A stretch of DNA of 64,000 nucleotides from Desulfatiglandales bacterium (lineage in GTDB: Bacteria; Desulfobacterota; DSM-4660; Desulfatiglandales; Desulfatiglandaceae), in assembly GCA_963662465.1 (NCBI GenBank), contig OY759599.1:7104001-7168000 (forward strand), in the 5' to 3' direction. Below are positions 1,367 through 54,461 of this stretch, piece by piece. Position 1 is the first letter of the stretch, and every line of letters begins with the position of its first letter. Made by a program: the position numbers and the translations under genes. The notes beneath the pieces were generated by a model, which made no database searches, was not told the origin of the DNA, and saw only the letters and a program-made list of their open reading frames with translations.

Positions 1367-1735
1367 GGGACATCCATAAGTTTATAAGAAACTCGCGCAA
1401 AGACGCTAAGGCGCAAAGATAGAAGCTGAAACCCAAAGGAGAAAGATAGAGGGCTGAAGGCAGAGGACAGAAGGCGGAGGGCAGTGTTGGGTTTTGGGTT
1501 TTGGGTTTTGAGTTTTGAGTTGAAGGGAAAGGACGGAGGGCAGTGTTGGGTTTTGGGTTTTGGGTTTTGGGTTTTGAGTTGAAGGGAAAGGGCGGAGGGC
1601 AGTTTTGAGTTTTGGGTTTTGAGTTTTGGGTTGAAGGGAAAGGGCGGAGGTCGGAGGGGAGTGTTGAGTTTTGAGTTTTGGGTTTTGGGTTTTGAGTTGA
1701 AGGGAAAGGGCGGAGGGCGGAGGTCGGATGTCGGA
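1367..1735 (+). repeat. Junction motif plus mixed GGACAGA / TTTTG(G/A)G heptamer arrays
   Basis: GGGGACATCCATAAGTTTATAAGAAACTCGCGCAAAGACGC followed by tandem heptamers. Confidence 0.9.
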
Positions 1736-1815
1736 GGAGTGAAAGAGCAAGAAGAAGGAAAGCTGGACGGATTGAAGATTTTTCCAGACGAGAGCCCGCT
1801 TTAGGAGGGGGATGG

Positions 1816-2444: not shown

Positions 2445-2660
2445 GCGGTGGACGGTGGACGGTGGACGGAGGACAGAGGACAGAGGACAGAGGACAGAAG
2501 ACAGAAGACGGAAGGGCGGAAAGGTGAGAAGTGGCAGAGGCGCAGAGAAGAGAGGACAGACGACGGAGGACAGAGGTCGGAGGTCGGATGTCGGAGGACA
2601 GGGGACGGAGGTCGGAGGTCGGAGGTCGGAGGACAGAGGACGGAAGACGGAGGACAGATG
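2445..2660 (+). repeat. GGACAGA/GGACGGA/GGTCGGA heptamer array
   Basis: Direct tandem heptamers. Confidence 0.9.
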
Positions 2661-3164: not shown

Positions 3165-3495
3165 TTTTCGATGATCTCCTGCTTTTATGATTTGCCCAAA
3201 AAATAGGATTAATGTTGCACTAAAAACTCACCTGGAAAGTCTTTTATTGAAATTGATATTGGCCTATTGTTTTCAGGGTGTCAAGTGTATAAACCTGAGA
3301 CATAGAATTATAAAATGGTCTCGCGCCCCGGTTAAATAAGTGCAAAAGAAATTTCACTGGGCAGGCAAAGACGCCAAGGCGCAAAGATAGAAGCCTGACG
3401 TCAGAGGACAGAGGACGGAGGACGGAGGACAGAGGGCGGAGGTTGGATGGCCTTTCCCTACTGGGCATGGAGATATGGAGGCAGTGTCTCAGGGG

Positions 3496-4785: not shown

Positions 4786-4944
4786 GCTTGTCAAGCTGTA
4801 TGTGGGTCGTGCAGCAATTGTGAGGGACTCGGGGACATCCATAAGAAAATAAGAAACTCTCGCCCAGAGACGCAGAGAAGGGACAGATGTCCGATGTCAG
4901 ATGTCCGATGTCTGATGTCAGGGGGTGCAGGTCAGAGGCCGGAC

Positions 4945-5490: not shown

Positions 5491-6165
5491 ATTCAATAGG
5501 ATAGCGTGGCCCGACCCCACTATCCGCATCGGTTTGATGCGGTGCGGGTGATTTTGCCTCGGTATGGGATTTGTGTGGCTTAGGGGTTCTTGCGCCCAGT
5601 AAAACAAAAACAAAAGAGGTTTCACCCCGGTTGAACACCCTAGAAGGGAACCCGGTTCAACGGGGCAGGGAGGGCGAAGGTCGGAGCGCGGGAAGTGCAG
5701 AGGTTGAAACTGTGGAGTGGGACGTTCTAATCTTTTGGATTTGTTTATTTTGTTGAAGATGGTACAGTCAGTGGTGCGGATGAGGGAGGATAAACAGTAG
5801 GGAGTCGAAAACCCGGGGTGTTTGATGGCTGGTGAGTGATAGACCATGAACCAGGTGGCTGACGAATGGAGGAAGAAAATGGACCGTGAAAAGAGCCTCG
5901 ACGTTGAAAAAGTAAAGCGCTTTTGGTTAGAGGAGGCGGTAGAGTCCCTTCGTGTAGCTGAGCATCTTGTAGAAAAAGAAGATTTTTCATATGCGCTATT
6001 TTTTGGTCATTTGGCTCTGGAAAATGTGATGAAAGGTGTTTGTGTGAAGAGGCGCAAAGAGCACGCTCCGCCTGTGCATAACCTGGTGAGGCTTGCTGGG
6101 GTTGCAGGAATTGCGCTCGATGAGGAAACGGAGAAAGCTCTCCTTATGATAACCGGTTTTAACAT

Positions 6166-6412
6166 CAATACCCGTGAATGAATAGTATTCATGCCGATTT
6201 TCAACCATGAAGAACATGAAGGTCATGAAGAAAAAGGGTTTCAAGGACTGCCTGACCGACGGTTGTCGCCTTTTTAGCCATTGCAGTCCGGATGTTTTCT
6301 TTTTTTAAAGGCCTTCATGTTCTTCATGTTCTTCATGGTGACTATTAAGAGTGTTGCATTCTAAGATCTTATGTCTTTCAACTATGTGAACAGGATTCAT
6401 TCACGGGTATTG
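6166..6412. mobile_element. 247-bp MITE, copy 1
   Basis: TIR CAATACCCGTGAATGAAT...ATTCATTCACGGGTATTG; internal inverted CATGAAGAA 9-mers; same as 7978-8224. Confidence 0.85.
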
Positions 6413-6595
6413 GGTTTAGGTACACTGCAATGTCACGCCCTTACAGGGCTCTGCATCAGAGGCTTGCCCATTCAGTCGCGAGGTGCGAACCGTAGAATGT
6501 TGAACAAGGAATTCGGTTTCTCCTTACATTTCATCGTTATCAGTGATTTGCTGATTAATTTCATATTGTCCGGCCATTCGGTAATCCCAGTCTGC

Positions 6596-7977: not shown

Positions 7978-8224
7978 CAATACCCGTGAATGAATAGTAT
8001 TCATGCCGATTTTCAACCATGAAGAACATGAAGGTCATGAAGAAAAAGGGTTTCAAGGACTGCCTGACCGACGGTTGTCGCCTTTTTAGCCATTGCAGTC
8101 CGGATGTTTTCTTTTTTTAAAGGCCTTCATGTTCTTCATGTTCTTCATGGTGACTATTAAGAGTGTTGCATTCTAAGATCTTATGTCTTTCAACTATGTG
8201 AACAGGATTCATTCACGGGTATTG
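7978..8224. mobile_element. 247-bp MITE, copy 2 (direct orientation)
   Basis: Same sequence as 6166-6412. Confidence 0.85.
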
Positions 8225-8330
8225 GGTTTAACATTGAATCTCGGTATCCCGATTTCAAAAGATCTTTTCGAACAAAATGCACTCAAGCATTCACAACAGA
8301 GCAGATGAGTGAAATAAAGAGGATTTTCGA

Positions 8331-8672
8331 ATGGCTGCGATCTCATCTGAAATAGAAGCGATTATCCGAAGATTCATAACCCTGCTTCAAAAGGAAAGAC
8401 GTATATCGAGAGTTTTTCTTTACGGTTCCCATGCAAAAGGAATTGCAGGAGAATGGAGCGATATCGATCTTGCGGTTGTGAGCCCTGACTTTTCAGAAGA
8501 TTTGTTCGAAGAGCGCGTTGGACTGATGAGACTGAGCCTACACATAGACGAACGTATTGAACCAAGTCCCTTCAGACCGGAAGACTTCAATGAGAATGAC
8601 CCACTGGTAAGCGAAATTAACGAATCGGGAATTGAGATTGCGTGGATTGGGGAAAAGCGGGACATCCATTAG
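8331..8672 (+). CDS. Minimal nucleotidyltransferase (MNT) antitoxin
   Basis: LYGSHAKG...SDIDLAVV; overlaps the HEPN end. Confidence 0.9.
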   Translation: MAAISSEIEAIIRRFITLLQKERRISRVFLYGSHAKGIAGEWSDIDLAVVSPDFSEDLFEERVGLMRLSLHIDERIEPSPFRPEDFNENDPLVSEINESGIEIAWIGEKRDIH

Positions 8673-8721
8673 TTTATAAGAAACTCGCGCAAAGACGCCA
8701 AGGCGAAAAGATAGAAGCCTG

Positions 8722-8855
8722 ACGTCAGAGGACGGAGGGCAGAGGGCAGAGGACAGAGGACGGAGGACTGAAGACAGAGGACGGAGGGCAGAGGACGGAG
8801 GACAGAGGACAGAGGACTGAAGACAGAGGACGGAAGACGGAGGGCAGAGGACGGA
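8722..8855 (+). repeat. GGACAGA/GGACGGA array upstream of a four-helix-bundle gene
   Basis: Tandem heptamers; complement at 9330-9443. Confidence 0.9.
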
Positions 8856-8892
8856 TATTGGAGAAGAGGCAAAACATAAAGGGAAAAGGACC

Positions 8893-9297
8893 ATGAGTGA
8901 TGCGATCCGTAGTTTTAGAGATTTGAAAGTTTACCAGAAATCATTTTCACTCCAGCAGAAGATTTTTGAATTAACCAAACGTTTTCCAAAAGAAGAACTT
9001 TACTCTCTTACCAATCAGATTCGGAGGTCTTCTCGTTCTATAGGTGCGAATTTGGCAGAAGCCTGGCATAAGAGGCGATATGTCGCCCATTTTGTCAGTA
9101 AACTATCGGATTCTGATGGAGAACAAGCTGAGACGCAGCACTGGCTTGAAACCGCCTTGGCGTGTCAATACATCGCTGAGGATCTTCACACTGAACTGAT
9201 GAATCAGTGTAAGGAAATAGGTCGAATGTTGGGGAAAATGATGGCCAATCCTGAATCCTTCTGCAAGCGCAATAGTGGCTCTACCAAAAGCTCTTGA
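8893..9297 (+). CDS. Four-helix bundle protein (23S rRNA IVP/S23-like, TIGR02436 type)
   Basis: SFRDLKVYQKS...FPKEELYSLTNQIRRSSRSIGANLAEA...AETQHWL. Confidence 0.92.
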   Translation: MSDAIRSFRDLKVYQKSFSLQQKIFELTKRFPKEELYSLTNQIRRSSRSIGANLAEAWHKRRYVAHFVSKLSDSDGEQAETQHWLETALACQYIAEDLHTELMNQCKEIGRMLGKMMANPESFCKRNSGSTKSS

Positions 9298-9329
9298 TCC
9301 TTCAGTCATCCGCCATCCTTAAGCTGTCT

Positions 9330-9443
9330 TTCGTCCTCCGTCTTCTGTCCTCTGTCCTCAGTCTTCCGTCCTCCGTCTTCTGTCTTCCGTCCTCCGTCTT
9401 CTGTCTTCCGTCCTCCGTCCTCCGTCCTCCGTCCTCCGTCCTC
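9330..9443 (-). repeat. Inverted TCCGTCC/TCTGTCT array downstream of the four-helix-bundle gene
   Basis: Reverse complement of the 8722-8855 unit. Confidence 0.9.
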
Positions 9444-9526
9444 TAGGGGCCAGAGGGGCAGAGGAAAGAAGATAAAAAGGTTTGAAGGTGTGTAATCTTG
9501 AGATTCGGTTTACCTGGAGATATTAG

Positions 9527-10366: not shown

Positions 10367-10854
10367 TGAACGGGTGTTACAACACCGGCTCCTGTTTCCA
10401 TCCCCGTTGCATTGCCGGCATTGAATTCACGGCCGGAAAAGACCAACGCCGTGACATCAAACTCATCACTTCTATTTTCGGAAATTCCGCCGATACACGA
10501 TAGATAAAAACGTCCTTCATGCGCTGGTCCAATGCGTGGATGTTTGTGGTGGCCAGCGGGACGCTTTTTAACAATTGAATAACTAGTTGAGGTTATTACA
10601 AAACAGGGGTTGGAGGACAGAGGACGGAGGACGGAGGGCAGAGGACGGAGGACAGAGGACGGAGGACTGAGGGCGGAGGAGGCCGGACAGCGGAGGACAG
10701 AGGTCCCTAAACACAAGATGCCAAAAAATATGGGGAAGGTGAGAGGGAAAAGTTGGGAAGAGAACGTGATACGGAGATAGCCTATTCGGTTAAAGGAGAA
10801 TGGTTTTGTCATAACTGCCTATTTCTTAGATGAGAAACCAAAGGGGAGCCTAAT

Positions 10855-11079: not shown

Positions 11080-11360
11080 ATGCAAGCAGTAGAAGTTGAG
11101 GCCAACTTTAGCGCAGAGGACGCAGGACGGAGGACGGAAGACAGAAGGGTGAGAAGGTTAGAGGATTAGAGGGCATAAGACAAAGATAGTCTCGCGCAGA
11201 GACGCAGAGACGCAGAGAAGAGAGGAAAAGACGGTGAGAAGTGGCAGAGGTTCCATACAGCTAATACCAATAATGAATAAGCAGCCCAGCGACCCCAGCA
11301 CCTGTACCATTTTTGAGTTTTCTGCAATCCTTCCTTTCGATTGCCCACCAGAGTAACAAC

Positions 11361-11638
11361 CACCTCCTCATCACACGAGATACCAAAACAAATGAACCCA
11401 TTAAATCCTGAAGAGACGAAACATGTTGGCGGAATTTCCCCCTTTCTGGGTGTTGTGGATTTCTGTTTGCTGAATCTGGCATTTTTTCTGCTGAATTACT
11501 GGAAACGGGGATCTTTTGAGTTGGCCCCAAAATATGGGAAGCTGCTGCTGGCCTTTTATGGTGTCTGGTTCCTGGTTTCCCTGGCCAATAAGAAATTTCA
11601 GTGGTGGGAATACGCGGGGTTGGGTAGAGGGCTGTGGA
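11361..11638 (+). pseudogene. Diverged 5' copy of the sugar transferase gene
   Basis: Aligns with 18077-18357. Confidence 0.9.
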
Positions 11639-11783
11639 GGCCCTGAACTGCAGTTTTGGGTTTTGAGTTTTGGGTTTTGGGTTAGGGAACTAGGGAACTG
11701 CAGTTTTGGGTTTTGAGTTTTGGGTTTTGGGTTAGGGAACTAGGGAACTGCAGTTTTGAGTTTTGAGTTTTGGGTTTTGGGTT

Positions 11784-12152
11784 ATGAGTGAAAGGAAGAT
11801 AGACGAGCGGACTTTTGAGTTTGCTTTACTGGTTGTGGATGGTTATAAATTTCTTCTGGGGAAAAAGGAGTTTGTGCTTTCGAAGCAGTTTTTAAGGGCT
11901 GGTACTTCGATCGGTGCGAATGTGACGGAGGCCCAAGCTGCCCAAAGCAGGAAAGATTTCATTTCTAAAATGGCCATCGCTTCCAAGGAAGCCAGAGAAA
12001 CGCTATATTGGATCAGACTGTTAAAAAGGTCCGGTTTTTTCAAGGGATATGCAAAAGTAAATATCCTGGAAAGCGAGATTTCCTCAATCATAAATATTCT
12101 CACGAAAATCGTGAAAACCACAAAGGAACAGGAACCGAAAGAGAAACCTTAA
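11784..12152 (+). CDS. Four-helix bundle protein, flanked by TTTTGGG / CCCAAAA arrays
   Basis: LSKQFLRAGTSIGANVTEAQAAQSRKDFISKMAIASKEARETLYWIRLL. Confidence 0.92.
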   Translation: MSERKIDERTFEFALLVVDGYKFLLGKKEFVLSKQFLRAGTSIGANVTEAQAAQSRKDFISKMAIASKEARETLYWIRLLKRSGFFKGYAKVNILESEISSIINILTKIVKTTKEQEPKEKP

Positions 12153-12249
12153 AACTGTAGTTTCTTCCACAACCCAAAACCGTTTTTGGGAACGATACGA
12201 ACGGACGCTGAGCGTCCACAGTGCATTCCCACGCTGGAGCGTGGGAACG

Positions 12250-14152
12250 GTGCGCCTGTGAAGGCGCTTTATCAGTGCGGTGAAAGTCCGTACCGGAGTA
12301 TGCCATAGCTCCGTAGCCGAAGGTAACTGCGTCGCCGCGAGGCGGGGTGGAGAGCAACCGGAGGCGAAAAGTCAGTCCGTAGGATGACGAACCCGATTCG
12401 GTGTCATGTGGTGGCGAGCCTACCGTTCCATGGTGAAGCCTGAAACTCACAGACCACGCTGTAATGGCGGTTAAAGCGATGGTTTGACGGCATGGTATGT
12501 TTGGGGTCGGAATGACTGGAAGGTAAAGCGAGATAAGCAGGGAGACCTGTCTCTTGGGGTGACAGGAGGCAGGAGTCAGAGTCCTCATAGTACCGTAGCG
12601 ACAGAACGGTCCTGCTAACAAGGCTTACGGCGTGAGACCAGTACCCGCCGCCTGCGTCGGATACCGGGTTGTGAAAAGCGCGGATAGCAAAACCGTGCCG
12701 AGGGAAGGAGGATAGGAAGATAGATACGGAAAGGTCATATAGATGCAGCTAAATCAAGCAGTCTCGGCAGTGTTGGAAACAACTAAACGCGAGGCAGAAA
12801 CCCGATGGGATTGGGTGGAAGCATCGGTGTGGACGGAACGTATGTTGGCAGCCCTGGGTAACGGGGTGAAAGGTGGTAAATGGTACAGTTTGATGGATAA
12901 GGTGTTCGCCTTGTCGACGCTGGAAGCGGCTTGGGGACGTGTCAAAGCCAATAAAGGAGCGGCAGGGATAGACCGTATCAGCATAAAGCGCTTTAAGGAG
13001 CAGGCGGAGAAATACCTTGCCGAACTGCATGAAACCTTGAAAGCGGGAACGTACCGACTGGAAGCGGTAAAACGGGTATACATTCCGAAAAGCGACGGCA
13101 AACAACGCCCGCTGGGGATACCCACGGTCAAAGACCGGGTAGTGCAGGCAGCGGTTAAAATGGTTATGGAGCCCATATTCGAGCATGAATTTCTGCCGAT
13201 GAGTTACGGCTTCAGGCCGCAAAGAGGTTGCAAGGACGCGTTGCGAGAAGTAGACGCGCTTATTAAGGAAGGCTACACCTTCATACTGGACGCCGACCTG
13301 AAAAGTTACTTTGATACGATTCCGCACGATAAGCTGATGCAACAAGTCGAAATGCGCATCAGCGACGGCAAATTGCTCAATCTGATTCAAATGTTCCTGA
13401 AACAGGACGTGATGGACGGCTTGGAAAGATGGACACCGACGGGTGGTTCGCCACAAGGGGCGGTAGTCAGCCCCTTGCTTGCGAATATTTACCTGCATCC
13501 TCTTGACAGCCTGATCGCGGAATCAGGTATGCGGATGGTGCGTTACGCGGACGACTTTGTTATCCTCAGCCGCAGTCAAACGGAAGCGGAGAATGCTTTG
13601 CAAAAGGTACGGGAGTGGGTACAGGCTAATGACCTGAGCTTACACCCGGACAAGACGCATCTTGGCGACTGTCGACAAAAGGGTCAGGGATTTGAATTCC
13701 TGGGATACCGGTTTGAGGCAGGAAAGCGCTGGATACGCAGTAAAAGCCGTAAAGCCCTTCGTGATAAAATCCGGGAAGAGACCCGGCGCAAACGTAGCGG
13801 AAGTATGGAAAGCATCATTGATGATCTGAACCCCATGCTTGAAGGCTGGTTTGGTTACTTCAAACACGCCTACCGCACTGAGTTTGCGGCGGTGGATAAG
13901 TTTGTCCGCCGACGCTTACGCGCCGTATTATTGCGTCGTAACAAACGCAAGGGCTGGGGCAAAAGCCTTGAAGCCCACCGCCGCTGGCCGAATGCCTACT
14001 TCGCGAAAATCGGGCTTTTCACTATGCATGAGGCCCGGTTAGCAGCGTGCCGATCCCGATGAGGAAACTATCGACCGGAGAGCCGTGTGCGGGAGAACCG
14101 CATGCACGGTTCGGAGGGAGGGGAGAGCCAAGAGGCTCTTTCCTACCCCTAT
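12250..14152 (+). mobile_element. Group II intron
   Basis: 5' GTGCG; domain V GAGCCGTGTGCGGGAGAACCGCATGCACGGTTC; domain VI ending CCCCTAT; encodes an RT. Confidence 0.92.
12743..14062 (+). CDS. ltrA: Group II intron reverse transcriptase/maturase, no endonuclease domain
   Basis: RPLGIPTVKDR, PQGAVVSPLLANIYL, RYADD, X domain GWFGYF. Confidence 0.95.
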   Translation: MQLNQAVSAVLETTKREAETRWDWVEASVWTERMLAALGNGVKGGKWYSLMDKVFALSTLEAAWGRVKANKGAAGIDRISIKRFKEQAEKYLAELHETLKAGTYRLEAVKRVYIPKSDGKQRPLGIPTVKDRVVQAAVKMVMEPIFEHEFLPMSYGFRPQRGCKDALREVDALIKEGYTFILDADLKSYFDTIPHDKLMQQVEMRISDGKLLNLIQMFLKQDVMDGLERWTPTGGSPQGAVVSPLLANIYLHPLDSLIAESGMRMVRYADDFVILSRSQTEAENALQKVREWVQANDLSLHPDKTHLGDCRQKGQGFEFLGYRFEAGKRWIRSKSRKALRDKIREETRRKRSGSMESIIDDLNPMLEGWFGYFKHAYRTEFAAVDKFVRRRLRAVLLRRNKRKGWGKSLEAHRRWPNAYFAKIGLFTMHEARLAACRSR

Positions 14153-14159
14153 AGAGGAA

Positions 14160-14395
14160 CTCAAAACTGTTTTTTTCCACAACCCAAAACCCAAAACCTA
14201 AAACCCAAAACTGTTTTCTTCCACAACCCAAAACCCAAAACCTAAAACCCAAAACTGTTTTCTTCCACAACCCAAAACCCAAAACCTAAAACCCAAAACT
14301 GTTTTTTTCCACAACCCAAAACTCAAAACCCAAAACTCAAAACCGTTTTTTTCCACAACCCAAAACCGCCTTTTTAATACCCAAAACTCAAAACT
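14160..14395 (-). repeat. CCCAAAA/CTCAAAA array (inverted partner of 11650-11783)
   Basis: Tandem heptamers with higher-order units. Confidence 0.9.
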
Positions 14396-15677: not shown

Positions 15678-15969
15678 TGCCAACTGAAATTCCAAACCCC
15701 ACCCAAAACATAGTACCCCTTCCTTTCCCTTTACCTATTTTAGCCCAAAGCTATTTTGGGTAATCTGTTCCAATTATCTACTCACCTTGGCCTTGAGCTT
15801 ACTCGTAATGGAATGGGACGTTGTTCCGTAATTCCGTTTTTTGACCACGAATCACACAGAGGACGGGGGACAGAGGACGGAGGACGGAGGGCAGAAGTCA
15901 GAGGGCAGAGGACGGATCGCAGGTCTCAGGAATTGGGCATAAAAACAGCCATTTCAGAATCTTCGGTTC

Positions 15970-16135: not shown

Positions 16136-16236
16136 TACTATCCGCAGATTACGCAGATTGACGCAGATTAGGGTTCTCACGCAAAGACGCCACGACGCAA
16201 AGAAGGGAGTCGGAATAATCTGAAACCCCCGGACAA

Positions 16237-16516
16237 CACCTCCTCATCACACGAGATACCCAAACAAATGAACCCATTAAATCCTGAAGAGCCGAAAAAT
16301 GTCAGCGGAGTCCGCCCGTTGTTCTGGGTGTTGTGGATTTCTGTTTGCTGAACCTGGCGTTTTTTCTGCTCAATTACTGGAAACGGGGATCTTTTGAGCT
16401 GAACCCCATCTATGGGAAGCTGCTGCTGGCCTTTTATGGGGTCTGGCTGGTGATTTCCCTGGCCAATAAGAAATTTCAGTGGCGGGAATACGCAGGGTTG
16501 GGTAAAGGGCTGTGGA
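16237..16516 (+). pseudogene. Second diverged 5' copy of the sugar transferase gene
   Basis: Aligns with 18077-18357; same 3' breakpoint as 11361-11638. Confidence 0.9.
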
Positions 16517-16666
16517 GGCCCTGAACTGCAGTTGTGGGTTTTGGGTTAGGGAACTGCAGTTTTGAGTTTTGAGTTTTGAGTTTTGGGTTTTGAGTTAAAG
16601 GAAACGTCCTGATTATGGGTGATGGGAAGATCTTTAAAGACAGTTTTGGGTTATGGGTTTTGGGTT

Positions 16667-16855
16667 ATGAGTGAAAGGAAGATAGACGAGCGGACTTTTG
16701 AGTTTGCTTTACTGGTTGTGGATGGTTATAAATTTCTTCTGGGGAAAAAGGAGTTTGTGCTTTCGAAGCAGTTTTTAAGGGCTGGTACTTCGATCGGTGC
16801 GAATGTGACGAGGCCCAAGCTGCCCAAAGCAGGAAAGATTTCATTAAAACTGTAG
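16667..16855 (+). pseudogene. Internally deleted copy of the 11784 four-helix-bundle gene
   Basis: Near-identical 5' half joined to TAAAACTGTAG. Confidence 0.88.
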
Positions 16856-16988
16856 TTTCTTCCAAAACCCAAAACCCAAAACCGCCTTTTCACAACCCAA
16901 AACTCAAAACCCAAAACTCAAAACCCAAAACTCAAAACCGTTTTTTTCAATGCCCAAAACTCAAAACTCAAAACCGCTCTAACTATTG

Positions 16989-20105: not shown

Positions 20106-20304
20106 TGTTTAACTTGCGCAGAGACGGAAAAGCAGTTTTGGGTTTTGAGTTTTGGGTTTTGGGTTTTGGGTTAGGGAACTGCAGTTTTGGGTTTTGGGTT
20201 TTGAGTTTTGGGTTAGGGAACTAGGGAAAAGCAGTTTTGGGTTTTGGGTTTTGAGTTTTGGGTTAGGGAACTAGGGAACAGCAGTTTTGGGTTTTGGGTT
20301 TTGG

Positions 20305-20490
20305 GTGAAAGGAAGATAGATGCGCGGACTTTTGAGTTTGCTTTACTGGTTGTGGATGGTTATAAATTTCTTCTGGGGAAAAAGGAGTTTGTGCTTTCGA
20401 AGCAGTTTTTAAGGTCTGGTACTTCGATCGGTGCGAATGTGACGGAGGCCCAAGCTGCCCAAAGCAGGAAAGATTTCATTAAAACTGTAG
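20305..20490 (+). pseudogene. Third, deleted copy of the four-helix-bundle gene between TTTTGGG/CCCAAAA arrays
   Basis: Same deletion junction as the 16667 copy. Confidence 0.85.
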
Positions 20491-20742
20491 TTTCTTCCAA
20501 AACCCAAAACCCAAAACCCAAAACTCAAAACCGCCTTTTCAATGCCCAAAACCCAAAACCAAAAACCGCCTTTTCAACCGTTGTGGCCGAGGGTTCTCTC
20601 GCCCCGGTTAAATAAGGGCCAAAGAGATTTAACTGGGTAAACAAAAAGGCGCAAAAGACGCAAAGACGAATTGAAGATGAAATCTGAGAGTGTAAAAGCT
20701 GGGAGGCAATTGGATCCAGGGTCTGAAGGAGGTGATTGATCG

Positions 20743-21151: not shown

Positions 21152-23157
21152 CGCATAAGTCTAAATGTTGTGGGGTTTACTCTAACATATTGAAATTATT
21201 TCATCTGTTAAACGGTTCAGAATCAATATCCTAATCAAAGCGCATTTCGTGAGGCCAAACATTTTTTCCTGAATTCGCCTTAGCGGAAAAAAGTTAGGGA
21301 CTTTTTTTGATAAGTGTGCATAATCATAGTGCAACAGTCTATGTTAAATTAGAGAGGTTGCACATGATTAATAATATTAAGAGAGCTTTGACAATGTTGG
21401 ACAAAGCTCAAAACAGACTTGCAAGACAATGTTATTACGATCCAAAACAGTATCCTGAGATTTTCTTTGAAATTGAGAAATGCATTAATGCCATCAGATC
21501 ATGGATCAATGAAAGGGAGATGTTTCAATCATTGCAATATTTTTATGTAACATTGTCTGCTCTTATTGATGAACTTGGTAGGTTAATAAGTCAATTATGG
21601 GATATTTGTAAGCCAATAAAAGGGAAAAAAAGCATTCCAAAAACACAACGGGATCGACAGAAAATTAGAATCTTTTATTCAATTCGTTCAATGATAAGTA
21701 ATATTACTAAAAAATTGAATAATGTAAAAAGTCGTGATAGTACAATCAGTATTGCATTTGAGATAGGGATGTTAAAATCTTTTGATAAATCCATAATCGA
21801 AAATGTAAAAAAGAAAATGGAAGACCTTGTTTCTAAACGAGGAAATCAAACATATATCTTTCCTTATAATAACACCGAAAGCTATCATGCTCTCGTAAAA
21901 GACAGTAAGAAGTTTCGCATTGAAGTATTAGATAAACTCGATAAATATGATCACCACACAGGCCATAATTCAACATGTTCTGGACCTAAAGAATATATTT
22001 TATCTGGTTTCCGCGGGAATCCTCGAAAAACAATAATGAATGGAGGAGAACAACAGACATTCCCAATCCGCATGATACAATGCCGGAAGTGCAAACAAAA
22101 GTTCTCTCTTGTTCCCAGCTTTCTCCCAAGGGAAAAGAATTTTGGTATAGAGATTATTGGGCACGTATTTCGGAATATGTACCGTTTTAATGCGAGCATT
22201 CAAGGAGCCATCGAAAGCCTTAAAATTATTGGCAAAAAAAGTGTCAAAAGCAAACAAACCATCTTGAACTGGAATCGATGGGCAGGAACACTTCATCCTG
22301 CAACAATACTAACAAGAGCAGGAGTGAAAGGCTCAGGATATCTACAGGAAGATGAGGGCTTTGAAAAAGAACCAAATTTAAGAACTTATTCTGTAGTTAT
22401 GGTCGATCCTGAAAATTTATTAGTATGGCACTCCGATTATGTTGATCATGTTGATGAAGAAAACCTGTGCGGTTCATTTGAGGATTTTTTGCAAAAAATC
22501 GACTTCAAAATCCTTGGTGTAACAAAAGATAAGTGGAAAGCCTCAACCAATGCTATCAAGACCGTATTCCATAACATTTGGGTCGGATATTGCCATCGTC
22601 ATTGTTTGAAAAACTTCTACGATGCACTATCAAAATATCAAAAAGAATCAAAATGTACCGACCAAGAAGTGGACAAGTTTTATAAAAAATTTAAGAAAGT
22701 TTTGAAAACATCCACATCTAAAGTTAACTTGGAAGTAAAGATTAAGGCATTAGATGACGATGCATTTTCTCATCCATTACTAAAAAAGAGGGTAGTAGAA
22801 TTAAAAGAAAATGCCACTCATTATACCTCTCATAAAAATAGAAATGGGATAAAACAAACAACCTCCATTGTTGACAATTATTTAAAAGGAATCAAACGTA
22901 AACTAAAACAAATTGAGAGTTTTCGAGATAAGAAATGGGCAAGTCTTTTCTTTCGAGCACATGCGACTATCAGGAATTTTGTCCCATTTTTACCTGGCGC
23001 AAAAAATGCTCATAAAAGTCCCTTTGAATTAGCCAACGGCCAAACATTTGACTTACCTTGGATTCAAGTTATGAATGTTCATAATGCATTCTTGTTTACC
23101 GAAAACGCCTTTTAATTTTGATGGGTTATACAACCCCACAACATTTAGACTTATGCG
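21152..23157 (+). mobile_element. 2006-bp IS, copy 1 (Mutator/IS256/ISH6-like)
   Basis: 26-bp TIR CGCATAAGTCTAAATGTTGTGGGGTT; AT-rich; three copies. Confidence 0.92.
21307..23115 (+). CDS. Transposase (likely start ATG 21364)
   Basis: CxxC finger, QEDEG, TKDKW, CHRH (CxxH), TTSIVDNY..IKRKLKQIESF. Confidence 0.8.
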   Translation: MISVHNHSATVYVKLERLHMINNIKRALTMLDKAQNRLARQCYYDPKQYPEIFFEIEKCINAIRSWINEREMFQSLQYFYVTLSALIDELGRLISQLWDICKPIKGKKSIPKTQRDRQKIRIFYSIRSMISNITKKLNNVKSRDSTISIAFEIGMLKSFDKSIIENVKKKMEDLVSKRGNQTYIFPYNNTESYHALVKDSKKFRIEVLDKLDKYDHHTGHNSTCSGPKEYILSGFRGNPRKTIMNGGEQQTFPIRMIQCRKCKQKFSLVPSFLPREKNFGIEIIGHVFRNMYRFNASIQGAIESLKIIGKKSVKSKQTILNWNRWAGTLHPATILTRAGVKGSGYLQEDEGFEKEPNLRTYSVVMVDPENLLVWHSDYVDHVDEENLCGSFEDFLQKIDFKILGVTKDKWKASTNAIKTVFHNIWVGYCHRHCLKNFYDALSKYQKESKCTDQEVDKFYKKFKKVLKTSTSKVNLEVKIKALDDDAFSHPLLKKRVVELKENATHYTSHKNRNGIKQTTSIVDNYLKGIKRKLKQIESFRDKKWASLFFRAHATIRNFVPFLPGAKNAHKSPFELANGQTFDLPWIQVMNVHNAFLFTENAF

Positions 23158-24843: not shown

Positions 24844-26849
24844 CGCATAAGTCTAAATGTTGTGGGGTTTACTCTAACATATTGAAATTATTTCATCTGT
24901 TAAACGGTTCCGAATCAATATCCTAATCAAAGCGCATTTCGTGAGGCCAAACATTTTTTCCTGAATTCGCCTTAGCGGAAAAAAGTTAGGGACTTTTTTT
25001 GATAAGTGTGCATAATCATAGTGCAACAGTCTATGTTAAATTAGAGAGGTTGCACATGATTAATAATATTAAGAGAGCTTTGACAATGTTGGACAAAGCT
25101 CAAAACAGACTTGCAAGACAATGTTATTACGATCCAAAACAGTATCCTGAGATTTTCTTTGAAATTGAGAAATGCATTAATGCCATCAGATCATGGATCA
25201 ATGAAAGGGAGATGTTTCAATCATTGCAATATTTTTATGTAACATTGTCTGCTCTTATTGATGAACTTGGTAGGTTAATAAGTCAATTATGGGATATTTG
25301 TAAGCCAATAAAAGGGAAAAAAAGCATTCCAAAAACACAACGGGATCGACAGAAAATTAGAATCTTTTATTCAATTCGTTCAATGATAAGTAATATTACT
25401 AAAAAATTGAATAATGTAAAAAGTCGTGATAGTACAATCAGTATTGCATTTGAGATAGGGATGTTAAAATCTTTTGATAAATCCATAATCGAAAATGTAA
25501 AAAAGAAAATGGAAGACCTTGTTTCTAAACGAGGAAATCAAACATATATCTTTCCTTATAATAACACCGAAAGCTATCATGCTCTCGTAAAAGATAGTAA
25601 GAAGTTTCGCATTGAAGTATTAGATAAACTCGATAAATATGATCACCACACAGGCCATAATTCAACATGTTCTGGACCTAAAGAATATATTTTATCTGGT
25701 TTCCGCGGGAATCCTCGAAAAACAATAATGAATGGAGGAGAACAACAGACATTCCCAATCCGCATGATACAATGCCGGAAGTGCAAACAAAAGTTCTCTC
25801 TTGTTCCCAGCTTTCTCCCAAGGGAAAAGAATTTTGGTATAGAGATTATTGGGCACGTATTTCGGAATATGTACCGTTTTAATGCGAGCATTCAAGGAGC
25901 CACCGAAAGCCTTAAAATTATTGGCAAAAAAAGTGTCAAAAGCAAACAAACCATCTTGAACTGGAATCGATGGGCAGGAACACTTCATCCTGCAACAATA
26001 CTAACAAGAGCAGGAGTGAAAGGCTCAGGATATCTACAGGAAGATGAGGGCTTTGAAAAAGAACCAAATTTAAGAACTTATTCTGTAGTTATGGTCGATC
26101 CTGAAAATTTATTAGTATGGCACTCCGATTATGTTGATCATGTTGATGAAGAAAACCTGTGCGGTTCATTTGAGGATTTTTTGCAAAAAATCGACTTCAA
26201 AATCCTTGGTGTAACAAAAGATAAGTGGAAAGCCTCAACCAATGCTATCAAGACCGTATTCCATAACATTTGGGTCGGATATTGCCATCGTCATTGTTTG
26301 AAAAACTTCTACGATGCACTATCAAAATATCAAAAAGAATCAAAATGTACCGACCAAGAAGTGGACAAGTTTTATAAAAAATTTAAGAAAGTTTTGAAAA
26401 CATCCACATCTAAAGTTAACTTGGAAGTAAAGATTAAGGCATTAGATGACGATGCATTTTCTCATCCATTACTAAAAAAGAGGGTAGTAGAATTAAAAGA
26501 AAATGCCACTCATTATACCTCTCATAAAAATAGAAATGGGATAAAACAAACAACCTCCATTGTTGACAATTATTTAAAAGGAATCAAACGTAAACTAAAA
26601 CAAATTGAGAGTTTTCGAGATAAGAAATGGGCAAGTCTTTTCTTTCGAGCACATGCGACTATCAGGAATTTTGTCCCATTTTTACCTGGCGCAAAAAATG
26701 CTCATAAAAGTCCCTTTGAATTAGCCAACGGCCAAACATTTGACTTACCTTGGATTCAAGTTATGAATGTTCATAATGCATTCTTGTTTACCGAAAACGC
26801 CTTTTAATTTTGATGGGTTATACAACCCCACAACATTTAGACTTATGCG
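24844..26849 (+). mobile_element. 2006-bp IS, copy 2 (CDS 24999..26807)
   Basis: TIRs; I>T substitution relative to the other copies. Confidence 0.92.
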
Positions 26850-26856
26850 CAAAAAA

Positions 26857-28862
26857 CGCATAAGTCTAAATGTTGTGGGGTTTACTCTAACATATTGAAA
26901 TTATTTCATCTGTTAAACGGTTCCGAATCAATATCCTAATCAAAGCGCATTTCGTGAGGCCAAACATTTTTTCCTGAATTCGCCTTAGCGGAAAAAAGTT
27001 AGGGACTTTTTTTGATAAGTGTGCATAATCATAGTGCAACAGTCTATGTTAAATTAGAGAGGTTGCACATGATTAATAATATTAAGAGAGCTTTGACAAT
27101 GTTGGACAAAGCTCAAAACAGACTTGCAAGACAATGTTATTACGATCCAAAACAGTATCCTGAGATTTTCTTTGAAATTGAGAAATGCATTAATGCCATC
27201 AGATCATGGATCAATGAAAGGGAGATGTTTCAATCATTGCAATATTTTTATGTAACATTGTCTGCTCTTATTGATGAACTTGGTAGGTTAATAAGTCAAT
27301 TATGGGATATTTGTAAGCCAATAAAAGGGAAAAAAAGCATTCCAAAAACACAACGGGATCGACAGAAAATTAGAATCTTTTATTCAATTCGTTCAATGAT
27401 AAGTAATATTACTAAAAAATTGAATAATGTAAAAAGTCGTGATAGTACAATCAGTATTGCATTTGAGATAGGGATGTTAAAATCTTTTGATAAATCCATA
27501 ATCGAAAATGTAAAAAAGAAAATGGAAGACCTTGTTTCTAAACGAGGAAATCAAACATATATCTTTCCTTATAATAACACCGAAAGCTATCATGCTCTCG
27601 TAAAAGATAGTAAGAAGTTTCGCATTGAAGTATTAGATAAACTCGATAAATATGATCACCACACAGGCCATAATTCAACATGTTCTGGACCTAAAGAATA
27701 TATTTTATCTGGTTTCCGCGGGAATCCTCGAAAAACAATAATGAATGGAGGAGAACAACAGACATTCCCAATCCGCATGATACAATGCCGGAAGTGCAAA
27801 CAAAAGTTCTCTCTTGTTCCCAGCTTTCTCCCAAGGGAAAAGAATTTTGGTATAGAGATTATTGGGCACGTATTTCGGAATATGTACCGTTTTAATGCGA
27901 GCATTCAAGGAGCCATCGAAAGCCTTAAAATTATTGGCAAAAAAAGTGTCAAAAGCAAACAAACCATCTTGAACTGGAATCGATGGGCAGGAACACTTCA
28001 TCCTGCAACAATACTAACAAGAGCAGGAGTGAAAGGCTCAGGATATCTACAGGAAGATGAGGGCTTTGAAAAAGAACCAAATTTAAGAACTTATTCTGTA
28101 GTTATGGTCGATCCTGAAAATTTATTAGTATGGCACTCCGATTATGTTGATCATGTTGATGAAGAAAACCTGTGCGGTTCATTTGAGGATTTTTTGCAAA
28201 AAATCGACTTCAAAATCCTTGGTGTAACAAAAGATAAGTGGAAAGCCTCAACCAATGCTATCAAGACCGTATTCCATAACATTTGGGTCGGATATTGCCA
28301 TCGTCATTGTTTGAAAAACTTCTACGATGCACTATCAAAATATCAAAAAGAATCAAAATGTACCGACCAAGAAGTGGACAAGCTTTATAAAAAATTTAAG
28401 AAAGTTTTGAAAACATCCACATCTAAAGTTAACTTGGAAGTAAAGATTAAGGCATTAGATGACGATGCATTTTCTCATCCATTACTAAAAAAGAGGGTAG
28501 TAGAATTAAAAGAAAATGCCACTCATTATACCTCTCATAAAAATAGAAATGGGATAAAACAAACAACCTCCATTGTTGACAATTATTTAAAAGGAATCAA
28601 ACGTAAACTAAAACAAATTGAGAGTTTTCGAGATAAGAAATGGGCAAGTCTTTTCTTTCGAGCACATGCGACTATCAGGAATTTTGTCCCATTTTTACCT
28701 GGCGCAAAAAATGCTCATAAAAGTCCCTTTGAATTAGCCAACGGCCAAACATTTGACTTACCTTGGATTCAAGTTATGAATGTTCATAATGCATTCTTGT
28801 TTACCGAAAACGCCTTTTAATTTTGATGGGTTATACAACCCCACAACATTTAGACTTATGCG
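26857..28862 (+). mobile_element. 2006-bp IS, copy 3 (CDS 27012..28820)
   Basis: TIRs; F>L substitution; 7 bp from copy 2. Confidence 0.92.
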
Positions 28863-47237: not shown

Positions 47238-47290
47238 GGCCTTGAACCATCCTCGGTTGGGTTTTTAGCTAACAGCTAACGGCTAACAGC

Positions 47291-48424
47291 TTAAGAAAAG
47301 GGCCATTTCCTGAAGCCCGATTTGATTGCGCACCATGTGTTTATCAGACCTTTCGGTTTAAAGATGATTACCAGAACAATGGCAAGACCCAATACAAATT
47401 CATGCAGCGGCGTGGTAGCGATGCCGGTAACGGCGTGAGCGCCGGCATTCATGAAATATTCGGTGATGAAGGTCAAAATTTCGTTCAGGGAAACAATGGC
47501 CAGAGCCCCCAGGATTGAACCGGATATGCTGCCGATGCCGCCGATAAGGATGACGGCCAGCAGTTCGATGGACAACTTCAGATTGAACATTGCCGGGGTA
47601 ATGACCGTTGCATTGTAGGCAAAAAGAGCGCCGGCAACGCCCGCGAAAAAAGAGCTGATGGCAAAGGCCAGGAGTTTATGGGGGAAAACGGCAATTCCCA
47701 TGGCCTCTGCTGCCCGATTATTTTGCCGAATGGCAAGAAAAGCACGGCCGGTTTTACTTCGAATGAGGTTGGCTGCCAGCCAGGTCATGAACGTGAGGCA
47801 AATGTAGATGATGTAAAAAACGGTGAGATTCGTCCCCGGATTTAAGCCTGCAAGGGTGGGCGCCGGCACAACAAAACCTTTTGTGCCGCCAGTCAAAGAC
47901 GCCCATTGCACCAGACCATATTCGATAATAAACTGCCCGGCCAGGGTGGCTGCGGCCATATAAATAAATTTGAGGCGAATTGCGGGGAGCGCGAAAATTG
48001 TTCCCACCATGGATGCGACAATTCCCGCAATTGGTATGACAAGGAAAAAAGGAAAACCCGCCTTTGCGGCCAGAAAGGCGCTCGCATAGGCGCCAATCCC
48101 AAAAAAAGCGCCATGGCCCAATGAGAGCTGGCCGGTATATCCGGTAAGAATATTGAGGCCCACCCCGGCAATGGCATAAATTCCGATCATGCTAAGGATG
48201 TGAAGAACATAATTGCTGTTGAAAAATGGCGCCAGGGCGAAGAGACACAAAATGCCGAAAATCATAAATCGCCGGCTAAAATCTGTTTGAAAGAGTTTCA
48301 GGTCTTTCTGGTAGCTGACCTTGAAATTCCCGCATGAATGAAACGGAGGTGGGAATGGTTTCGATCCTTCTGTTCGTTTGATGTGTCGCATGCGATCATA
48401 CCCTTTCGATTTTTGCCTGACCAA
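47291..48424 (-). CDS. LivM-like ABC permease
   Basis: GLNILTGYTGQLSLGHGAFFGIGAY. Confidence 0.9.
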   Translation of the reverse strand: MVRQKSKGYDRMRHIKRTEGSKPFPPPFHSCGNFKVSYQKDLKLFQTDFSRRFMIFGILCLFALAPFFNSNYVLHILSMIGIYAIAGVGLNILTGYTGQLSLGHGAFFGIGAYASAFLAAKAGFPFFLVIPIAGIVASMVGTIFALPAIRLKFIYMAAATLAGQFIIEYGLVQWASLTGGTKGFVVPAPTLAGLNPGTNLTVFYIIYICLTFMTWLAANLIRSKTGRAFLAIRQNNRAAEAMGIAVFPHKLLAFAISSFFAGVAGALFAYNATVITPAMFNLKLSIELLAVILIGGIGSISGSILGALAIVSLNEILTFITEYFMNAGAHAVTGIATTPLHEFVLGLAIVLVIIFKPKGLINTWCAIKSGFRKWPFS

Positions 48425-54376: not shown

Positions 54377-54414
54377 GGGCGTCCCGGGCGTGTTTTACTC
54401 GGGGCGCTCTTTTA
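54377..54414 (+). terminator. Intrinsic terminator after etfA
   Basis: GGGCGTCCCGGG...CTCGGGGCGCTC followed by TTTT. Confidence 0.6.
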
Positions 54415-54461
54415 GCTTTTAGCCATTAGCTCAAGAGCTAACAGCTAACGGCTAATAGCTT

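Follow-up and report, generated by a model that had tools for sequence, protein, structure and literature searches.

Small four-helix-bundle genes between inverted heptamer arrays: a candidate transposase-less cassette in a Desulfatiglandales genome

Genes of family TIGR02436/PF05635, which encode small four-helix-bundle proteins, are in general carried between two inverted arrays of short tandem repeats, and this layout is spread across phyla. Two intact examples with different heptamers were found in the window analysed here, a stretch of 64,000 nucleotides (G000:C1:7104001-7168000) from a one-contig genome of 8.16 Mb. Sequence comparisons suggest that such a gene and its arms probably form a selfish cassette without transposase, whose protein would recognise its own repeat. 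The protein family, the rRNA intervening sequences (IVSs), the DGR protein Avd and the heptamer excess are each already known, separately. No account of a repeat-armed cassette was found in a literature search, which reached few subscription papers.

The earlier note had proposed that inverted arrays of differing heptamers bracket each paralog of the window, and this was confirmed for both intact genes (Table 1). Cassette 1 is neighboured by a nucleotidyltransferase gene and dinD, with no 23S rRNA gene around it. The PF05635 gene is the one ORF between its arms, and no known transposase or recombinase is encoded there. Its complementary ends close a predicted stem around the sense ORF: in the RNA fold of 8700-9470 both arms pair with each other (z = -11.3), and none of 20 shuffles was as stable.

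Table 1. Arms, genes and related features of the two cassettes and of the gene-less arrays, in positions of the window
Feature	Position	Strand	Remarks
Gene-less array	1448..1737	+	units of both heptamer families mixed
Gene-less array, cassette-1 family	2446..2660	+	between relB-like and parE-like genes
Gene-less array, cassette-1 family	3400..3442	+	
Left arm, cassette 1	8726-8852 (to 8856)	+	18 phased heptamers, period 7, consensus GACRGAG, 49-bp higher-order repeat
Four-helix-bundle gene 1	8893..9297	+	134 aa, TIGR02436 / PF05635, intact
Right arm, cassette 1	9332-9443 (from 9329)	-	16 heptamers, complementary unit, same consensus as left arm
Gene-less array, cassette-1 family	10612..10694	+	
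Left arm, cassette 2	11645..11783	+	TTTTGRG units, 50-bp higher-order repeat
Four-helix-bundle gene 2	11784..12152	+	122 aa, TIGR02436 / PF05635, intact
Right-arm stub, cassette 2, then inserted REP-like hairpin	12153..12249	.	hairpin is the intron target
Group II intron	12250..14152	+	RT 12743-14062; splits right arm of cassette 2
Displaced main right arm, cassette 2	14158-14367 (to 14395)	-	(CCCAAAA)n, 44-bp higher-order repeat, TTTTGRG family
Gene-less array, cassette-1 family	15855..15913	+	
Decayed copy of cassette 2	16545..16974	+	left arm, ORF remnant 16667-16846, right arm 16862-16974
Decayed copy of cassette 2	20126..20577	+	left arm, ORF remnant from 20302, right arm 20497-20577

Gene 2 displayed about 27% identity to gene 1 across the aligned part. 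The array described upstream of it is present as (TTTTGRG)n, but only a stub directly follows the gene: the main (CCCAAAA)n array has been pushed downstream by the hairpin and a group II intron. The additional copies at 16667 and 20302 likewise kept both arms, but their genes are internally deleted rather than intact. Both remnants lack 11962-12148 of gene 2 (187 bp), with an additional loss of one base in the remnant at 16667, and this common deletion identifies them as decayed copies of cassette 2.

The RT near the cassettes is the maturase of the group II intron (405.7 vs 300 bits), and no other RT was found nearby. We considered it as a dedicated partner of the cassettes and rejected it, since 11 of the 13 5' ends of this intron found genome-wide lie directly behind the same REP-like hairpin; one of the others directly follows another intron copy and one occupies an unrelated site. 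The intron beside cassette 2 is a bystander at its ordinary hairpin target.

The region as a whole is a scrambled cluster of toxin-antitoxin genes, sugar-transferase gene fragments and IS-like repeats, so that some local copies arose with larger duplications. Duplicates of the initial ~290 bases of the sugar-transferase gene region (from 18077) are found at 11330-11646 and 16236-16525, and their fusion to the left arm of cassette 2 recurs at G000:C1:103231. Toxin-antitoxin genes are separated by a recurring linker of some 70-80 bases (640-700, 1365-1440, 3355-3440, 4830-4880 and 8655-8725) that often leads into a left heptamer arm and of which a piece is present in a genome of the same genus (G010). 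An element of about 250 bases with inverted 9-mer arrays (CATGAAGAA / CTTCATGTT) occurs in two copies (5996-6430 and 7980-8230), the first of which truncates the HEPN gene at 5846-6181. Three near-identical 602-aa ORFs (21307-23115, 24999-26807 and 27012-28820) resemble an insertion-sequence transposase. Further heptamer arrays, with AGCTAAC and CTTTTAG units, were recorded at 47267-47291 and 54409-54460, the latter looking like an inward-facing gene-less pair.

It had also been proposed that heptamers elsewhere lie on the + strand only, with a flip across the genes alone. In a strand scan of the window, the GACAGAG family occupied the - strand only at 9336-9440, and the TTTTGAG family only at 14315-14342, 16889-16973 and 20503-20530. 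Minus-strand arrays thus occur only behind the four genes, and the description holds within the window, but not genome-wide, where arrays lie on both strands (26 of the 68 TTTTAAG arrays are on the + strand). Arrays of period 7 number 284 in the genome, whereas any other period between 4 and 12 is represented by 2-24 arrays; the heptamer arrays are mostly intergenic. Among 293 genome arrays, 28 had an inverted partner on their inner side and none on their outer side. The commonest families, TTTTAAG and CTGTTAG, flank none of the genome's 12 TIGR02436 matches, about half of which span just part of the profile. Left and right arms could not be told apart by where gene-less arrays lie with respect to crude gene calls.

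A parallel gene-plus-arms system was observed around GxxExxY genes (TIGR04256; 12 matches in the genome): short arrays with units of 8 or 9 bases, in inverted or in direct orientation, flank these genes. Sites outside the window include G000:C1:5563242, 112471, 108671, 8119351, 7021931 and 7091747, and 8/9-mer units of a similar kind also occur at various places in the window.

The generality of the layout was established on loci from relatives' genomes, from 80 named genome contigs (relatives of protein 1) and from 80 metagenome contigs (relatives of protein 2). A total of 317 distinct matches left 285 with at least 80% profile coverage and 255 with 200 bases on both sides; only the latter were counted, a set in which the two query clades and one phylum are over-represented and kin are not independent. 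A complementary (inverted) flank score of at least 12 was displayed by 203 of the 255 homologs, against 2 of 300 similar-sized control ORFs from the same genome and 26 of 255 with shuffled partners; 52 homologs fell below this score. The direct-repeat flank score was reached by 56 of 255. Period 7 (16 of 21 positions) was found on both flanks of 115 homologs and of 2 of the 300 control ORFs. None of eight DGR avd genes reached the inverted-score or period-7 mark on both flanks. The best period was 7 in 192 homologs, 8 in 16 and 9 in 7, with none in 40, and genes with 8- and 9-mers largely grouped together on the protein tree. The longest run per arm was most often five units on the left (52/142 genes) and four on the right (54/142); with 16-18 units, cassette 1 lies far above this five-unit mode. 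Absence of inverted arrays from homologs in general, which would have spoken against the proposal, was thus not what the flanks displayed.

A clear relationship was observed between repeat and protein. In the 142 of 255 genes whose two flanks carry a single unit family, the units were the more distant the further apart the proteins were (Mantel r 0.56; best of 999 permutations 0.047), and both unit and period followed the protein clade, not the host genome. This supports the co-phylogeny of protein and heptamer that the earlier note had raised. Its proposal of a different repeat for each paralog was likewise upheld: paralog pairs from the same genome with less than 55% identity shared their unit in one case out of 48. 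Among pairs from different named phyla, the unit was shared by 132 of 301 at 55% identity or above and by 4 of 169 below it. Such a match would also be expected if arms and gene were simply inherited together, and it is therefore no proof of binding. At the genome level co-occurrence was weak: the gene-2 repeat pattern was present in three of four genomes with a gene of at least 70% identity, and also in 16 of 145 other genomes. Arrays persist in genomes without a close cognate gene.

Both window genes belong to the family, with scores above the curated cut-offs (108.9 and 95.1 bits for TIGR02436, cut-off 24; 118.1 and 76.6 bits for PF05635, cut-off 33.8). The structure model of protein 1 consists of four helices (pLDDT 93) and matched 2GSC best (Z 19.6, rmsd 1.5, 113 aligned), followed by 2RLD (Z 16.8) and Avd (PDB 4DWL and 8UB7, Z 14.5-15.0), with unrelated bundles at 13.3 or below. 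These matches comprise only uncharacterised proteins and the non-catalytic Avd. The fold is that of Avd, but sequence identity is 15%, no DGR RT with template and variable repeats is adjacent, and the score stays below the cut-off of the NCBIfam Avd profile NF033474 (44.2 vs 80); a PF22296 match, in gene 1 only, is borderline (40.2, cut-off 40). Entries 2GSC and 2RLD contain five chains each, and S23p and Avd are described as pentamers (PMC4990558; bioRxiv 10.1101/2023.10.23.563531); by analogy, the cassette proteins are predicted to form an Avd-like pentamer. Residue E80 was invariant and Q42, S49, N53 and E56 near-invariant in 100 aligned sequences, whereas neighbouring positions were fixed per clade. 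Judging from a median dN/dS of 0.08 (84 close pairs), the gene is under strong purifying selection. Of 121 genomes sampled in the phylum, 69 contained the family, whose presence is patchy and multi-clade. No relative of protein 2 emerged from a scan of viral contigs, which reaches close relatives only.

As to mobility, the flanks of 265 cassettes of relatives were mapped on the window's genome, where both neighbours lay close together in 36 cases; 23 of these junctions, with gaps of up to 300 bases, were read. No heptamer array was present in 14 rows, an array of another family in eight rows (six junctions), and the same arms in one. The cassette L014 (G010, same genus) survives in the window's genome as arms, RBS and ATG with about 316 ORF bases gone, so that this gene-less pair was derived from a cassette by deletion. 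Another cassette of the genus (L013) fills, in genome G001, an operon junction that is empty in the window's genome; we take this operon to be that of ATP synthase. Its copy in the window's genome lies at an unrelated site (6454 kb) and is 96.5% identical over 428 bp, the identity ending at the arms. Among 209 genomes of the order, 12 contained elements of this family, at 29 places in total, and many of these elements were internally deleted, often in differing ways. The mobile unit that the earlier note had suspected is thus supported for related cassettes, but not for the one at 8893 itself. Finally, the cassette L256 stands in place of a helix within a 23S rRNA gene, and a true IVS therefore has the same build as a cassette. 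Where both neighbours point in the same direction, cassettes were in sense orientation 143 times and antisense three times (252 loci, the rest having mixed or uncalled neighbours). Inverted ends and internally deleted derivatives, as present in the cassettes, are traits of insertion sequences and MITEs.

One operon (L240, G017:C43:1400-13400) holds five four-helix-bundle genes. Several of its junctions (G000:C1:3783000-3791200) are occupied in further genomes by different cassettes or by arms that lack a gene, and are recurrent insertion hot spots.

The closest known relatives in build are the ORF-bearing 23S rRNA IVSs of Coxiella and Leptospira, which share family (S23p/PF05635), complementary ends and a sense ORF with the cassettes (PMC4990558). 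The Coxiella IVS is described there as RNase III-excised and as carrying, before the S23p ORF, tandem GACAGAT heptamers, which fit the gene-1 consensus; in that account the heptamers count as incidental, and the protein is viewed as one in decay. Together with L256, this bears out the suggested link to rRNA intervening sequences. The cassettes differ in lying between protein genes, in arms of up to 18 units, in the coexistence of several clades per genome, each with its own repeats, and in their gene-less derivatives.

The likeness raises the question of whether the cassettes are an mRNA version of the rRNA IVS, the arms forming a stem cut by RNase III that processes the operon transcript, and the gene being a passenger spread by recombination. 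The strong predicted stem of 8700-9470, the excision of the Coxiella IVS with its GACAGAT repeats (PMC4990558), the rRNA insertion L256 and the sense orientation would all suit it. So would some in-register complementarity of the arms: over 132 genes, 755 mismatches were counted, against 857 +/- 14 with permuted units. Yet the kind of mismatch does not fit a conserved stem, G·U-type mismatches (168) not being in excess over A·C-type ones (156, p 0.54), with 266 purine-purine mismatches besides. In the gene-1 clade, C3, G5 and A6 were 92-99% fixed in both arms across phyla while positions 4 and 7 varied within single arrays, and a stem needs neither such fixed positions nor a fixed period. Left- and right-arm variant use was uncorrelated in this clade (31 genes), whereas it was correlated in the gene-2 clade (rho 0.52-0.91 in four of five tests, 25 genes); the latter, like the in-register pairing excess, is compatible with pairing, conversion or subclade structure. 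Strong purifying selection on the ORF likewise speaks against this version. The long stem enclosing the ORF that had been inferred earlier is therefore weakened as a selected feature, and arms that keep their consensus without a G·U bias favour protein recognition over selection for an RNA stem. Taken together, we regard the mRNA version of the IVS as rather unlikely, though the best placed of the alternatives.

Adenine mutagenesis of the Avd type was another candidate, as the source of unit variation, and is unsupported, since variable sites are not confined to A. It is equally unsupported by a 105-bp unit, made of the gene-2 left arm and a start-codon-like spacer, that is amplified about 25 times at G000:C1:86288-88930 and about 11 times at 8147975-8149130: its variable sites are almost all two-state and reshuffled between copies.

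The reading that we prefer, a selfish cassette whose protein recognises its repeat, could operate as follows. The promoter of the host operon would transcribe the cassette, and the predicted pentamer would wrap about five tandem units on single-stranded nucleic acid, one per subunit. TRAP, which wraps tandem repeats, offers an analogy for a ring on an array, and the match between five units per arm and five subunits is suggestive. Binding of one unit per subunit is modelled on Avd, whose pentamer serves a reverse transcriptase and binds RNA through equivalent crevices, all five protomers contacting the RNA and flipped bases lying in the inter-protomer crevices (bioRxiv 10.1101/2023.10.23.563531). 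The bound pentamer might then mark the cassette ends for copying to new sites. With inverted arms, each strand would present the same motif at the same end, so that RNA and cDNA, or both DNA strands, could be handled alike; this would explain why the arms share a consensus and yet show no G·U bias. A transcription-linked step is indicated by the marked preference for sense orientation and by the insertion in rRNA, and homology to Avd points to a borrowed reverse transcriptase. Such an enzyme, most likely of the host group II intron type, would make and insert the copy. This particular route, drawn from the Avd analogy, is possible but on balance doubtful: no RT linked to the cassettes was found, and the nearby intron occupies the kind of hairpin that it normally targets. 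The dispersed heptamer arrays would afterwards be left behind by slippage, unequal exchange and deletion.

Alternatively, the four-helix bundle may itself be the catalyst, a new nuclease or strand-transferase, the cassette moving as ssDNA without any borrowed enzyme. The invariance of E80 and near-invariance of Q42, S49, N53 and E56 across clades would be understandable in that case, as would the absence of a second gene between the arms at the window locus. The missing G·U bias suits ends that act at the DNA level, and Ssn ssDNA nucleases share the logic of a gene between its own repeats (PMC11893778). However, the fold matches only uncharacterised proteins and Avd, which is non-catalytic and sits some 40 A away from the active site of the RT, and random DNA transposition alone would not give a sense-to-antisense ratio of 143:3. 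This makes a catalytic bundle unlikely, slightly more so than the IVS version.

More improbable still is a host RNA-binding regulator of the TRAP type, which would bind heptamers near starts and stops and autoregulate, the dispersed arrays being its regulon instead of dead ends. The mostly intergenic arrays, the five units per arm and the purifying selection would agree with it, and TAACTGA repeats before start codons have been proposed as translational signals (PMC4679880). A regulon is nevertheless hard to reconcile with related genomes that hold different repeat families or none at the same junction, with the partial coverage of about half of the 12 TIGR02436 matches, with gene-less pairs that come from cassettes by deletion, and with the patchy, multi-clade presence of the gene.

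A last alternative concerns a shell that surrounds many copies of the genus, with CTAA-N-GCGG..CCGC at the left end and ..CTAA at the right end. The genome contains 52 left shell ends, preceding more than one heptamer family. As to target-site duplications, empty and filled junctions were too diverged to reveal one, and CTAA at both outer ends occurred in shell-bearing copies only. Short shell elements often end in a TTTTGTGACAG motif plus CTAA (e.g. G000:C1:2796674 and 7628378; loci L330-L358). That the cassettes are passengers of these CTAA and GCGG-hairpin elements, moved by a HUH/RAYT transposase encoded elsewhere, would account for the many genus copies with such ends and for the variety of families behind the 52 left shells, but is very improbable, since no shell accompanies the copy in G001, the cassette from G010, the insertion in rRNA or the junctions shown for the other relatives, and both cassettes of the window lack it too. 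The shell is possibly a REP-like carrier, perhaps separate from the cassettes.

Returning to the cassette as a selfish unit with its own repeat, the window locus falls outside the families of rRNA IVSs, DGRs, ISs and Ssn/RAYT elements; it has an IVS-like build and behaves as a gene-plus-cognate-repeat element. In REP/RAYT systems, a gene is flanked by its repeat, with variant repeats and gene-less copies, the repeats being short hairpins and the enzymes of the HUH type. A gene flanked by its cognate repeat, together with dispersed gene-less copies, is likewise present in the cassettes. Ssn nucleases with their NTS/SRM repeats are similar in that a small gene is flanked on both sides by a repeat thought or shown to be recognised, variant proteins have variant repeats, and genomes contain many gene-less copies (PMC11893778). 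They differ by short hairpin repeats and GIY-YIG enzymes (PMC11893778). The cassettes, in contrast to both systems, display tandem 7-9-mers in inverted arms and an all-helical PF05635 bundle without known catalytic motif, which matched no GIY-YIG nuclease or HUH transposase family.

Heptamers had previously been reported without explanation, namely GGGAATC of Xanthomonas and Nostoc (PMC4692102) and TAACTGA of Beggiatoaceae (PMC4679880). Like the cassette arms, they are described as intergenic, with about four units, near stops or starts and in inverted pairs. A word search of the two main texts turned up neither S23 nor helix-bundle genes next to the repeats. One of the cassette families detected here carries TAACTGA in its right arm.

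The cassette is possibly a new class. In its boldest form, this would be a transposase-free element whose Avd-like pentamer reads five 7-9-base repeats by a clade code and copies the element into transcribed junctions, IVSs being one landing site, the DGR Avd a domesticated form and much of the bacterial heptamer excess its footprints; we propose this only tentatively, at somewhat less than even chances. The cassettes are a likely source of many of the heptamer repeats of bacterial genomes that earlier reports left unexplained (PMC4692102; PMC4679880), and ORF-bearing rRNA IVSs are recast as one case of a genome-wide cassette. Orphan family PF05635 gains a specific candidate ligand, and the two intact paralogs of the window, with different repeats and 2.5 kb apart, offer a ready reciprocal test of specificity. 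A ring protein with a clade-specific readout of 7-9 bases would, if true, be a new kind of sequence-specific nucleic-acid binder.
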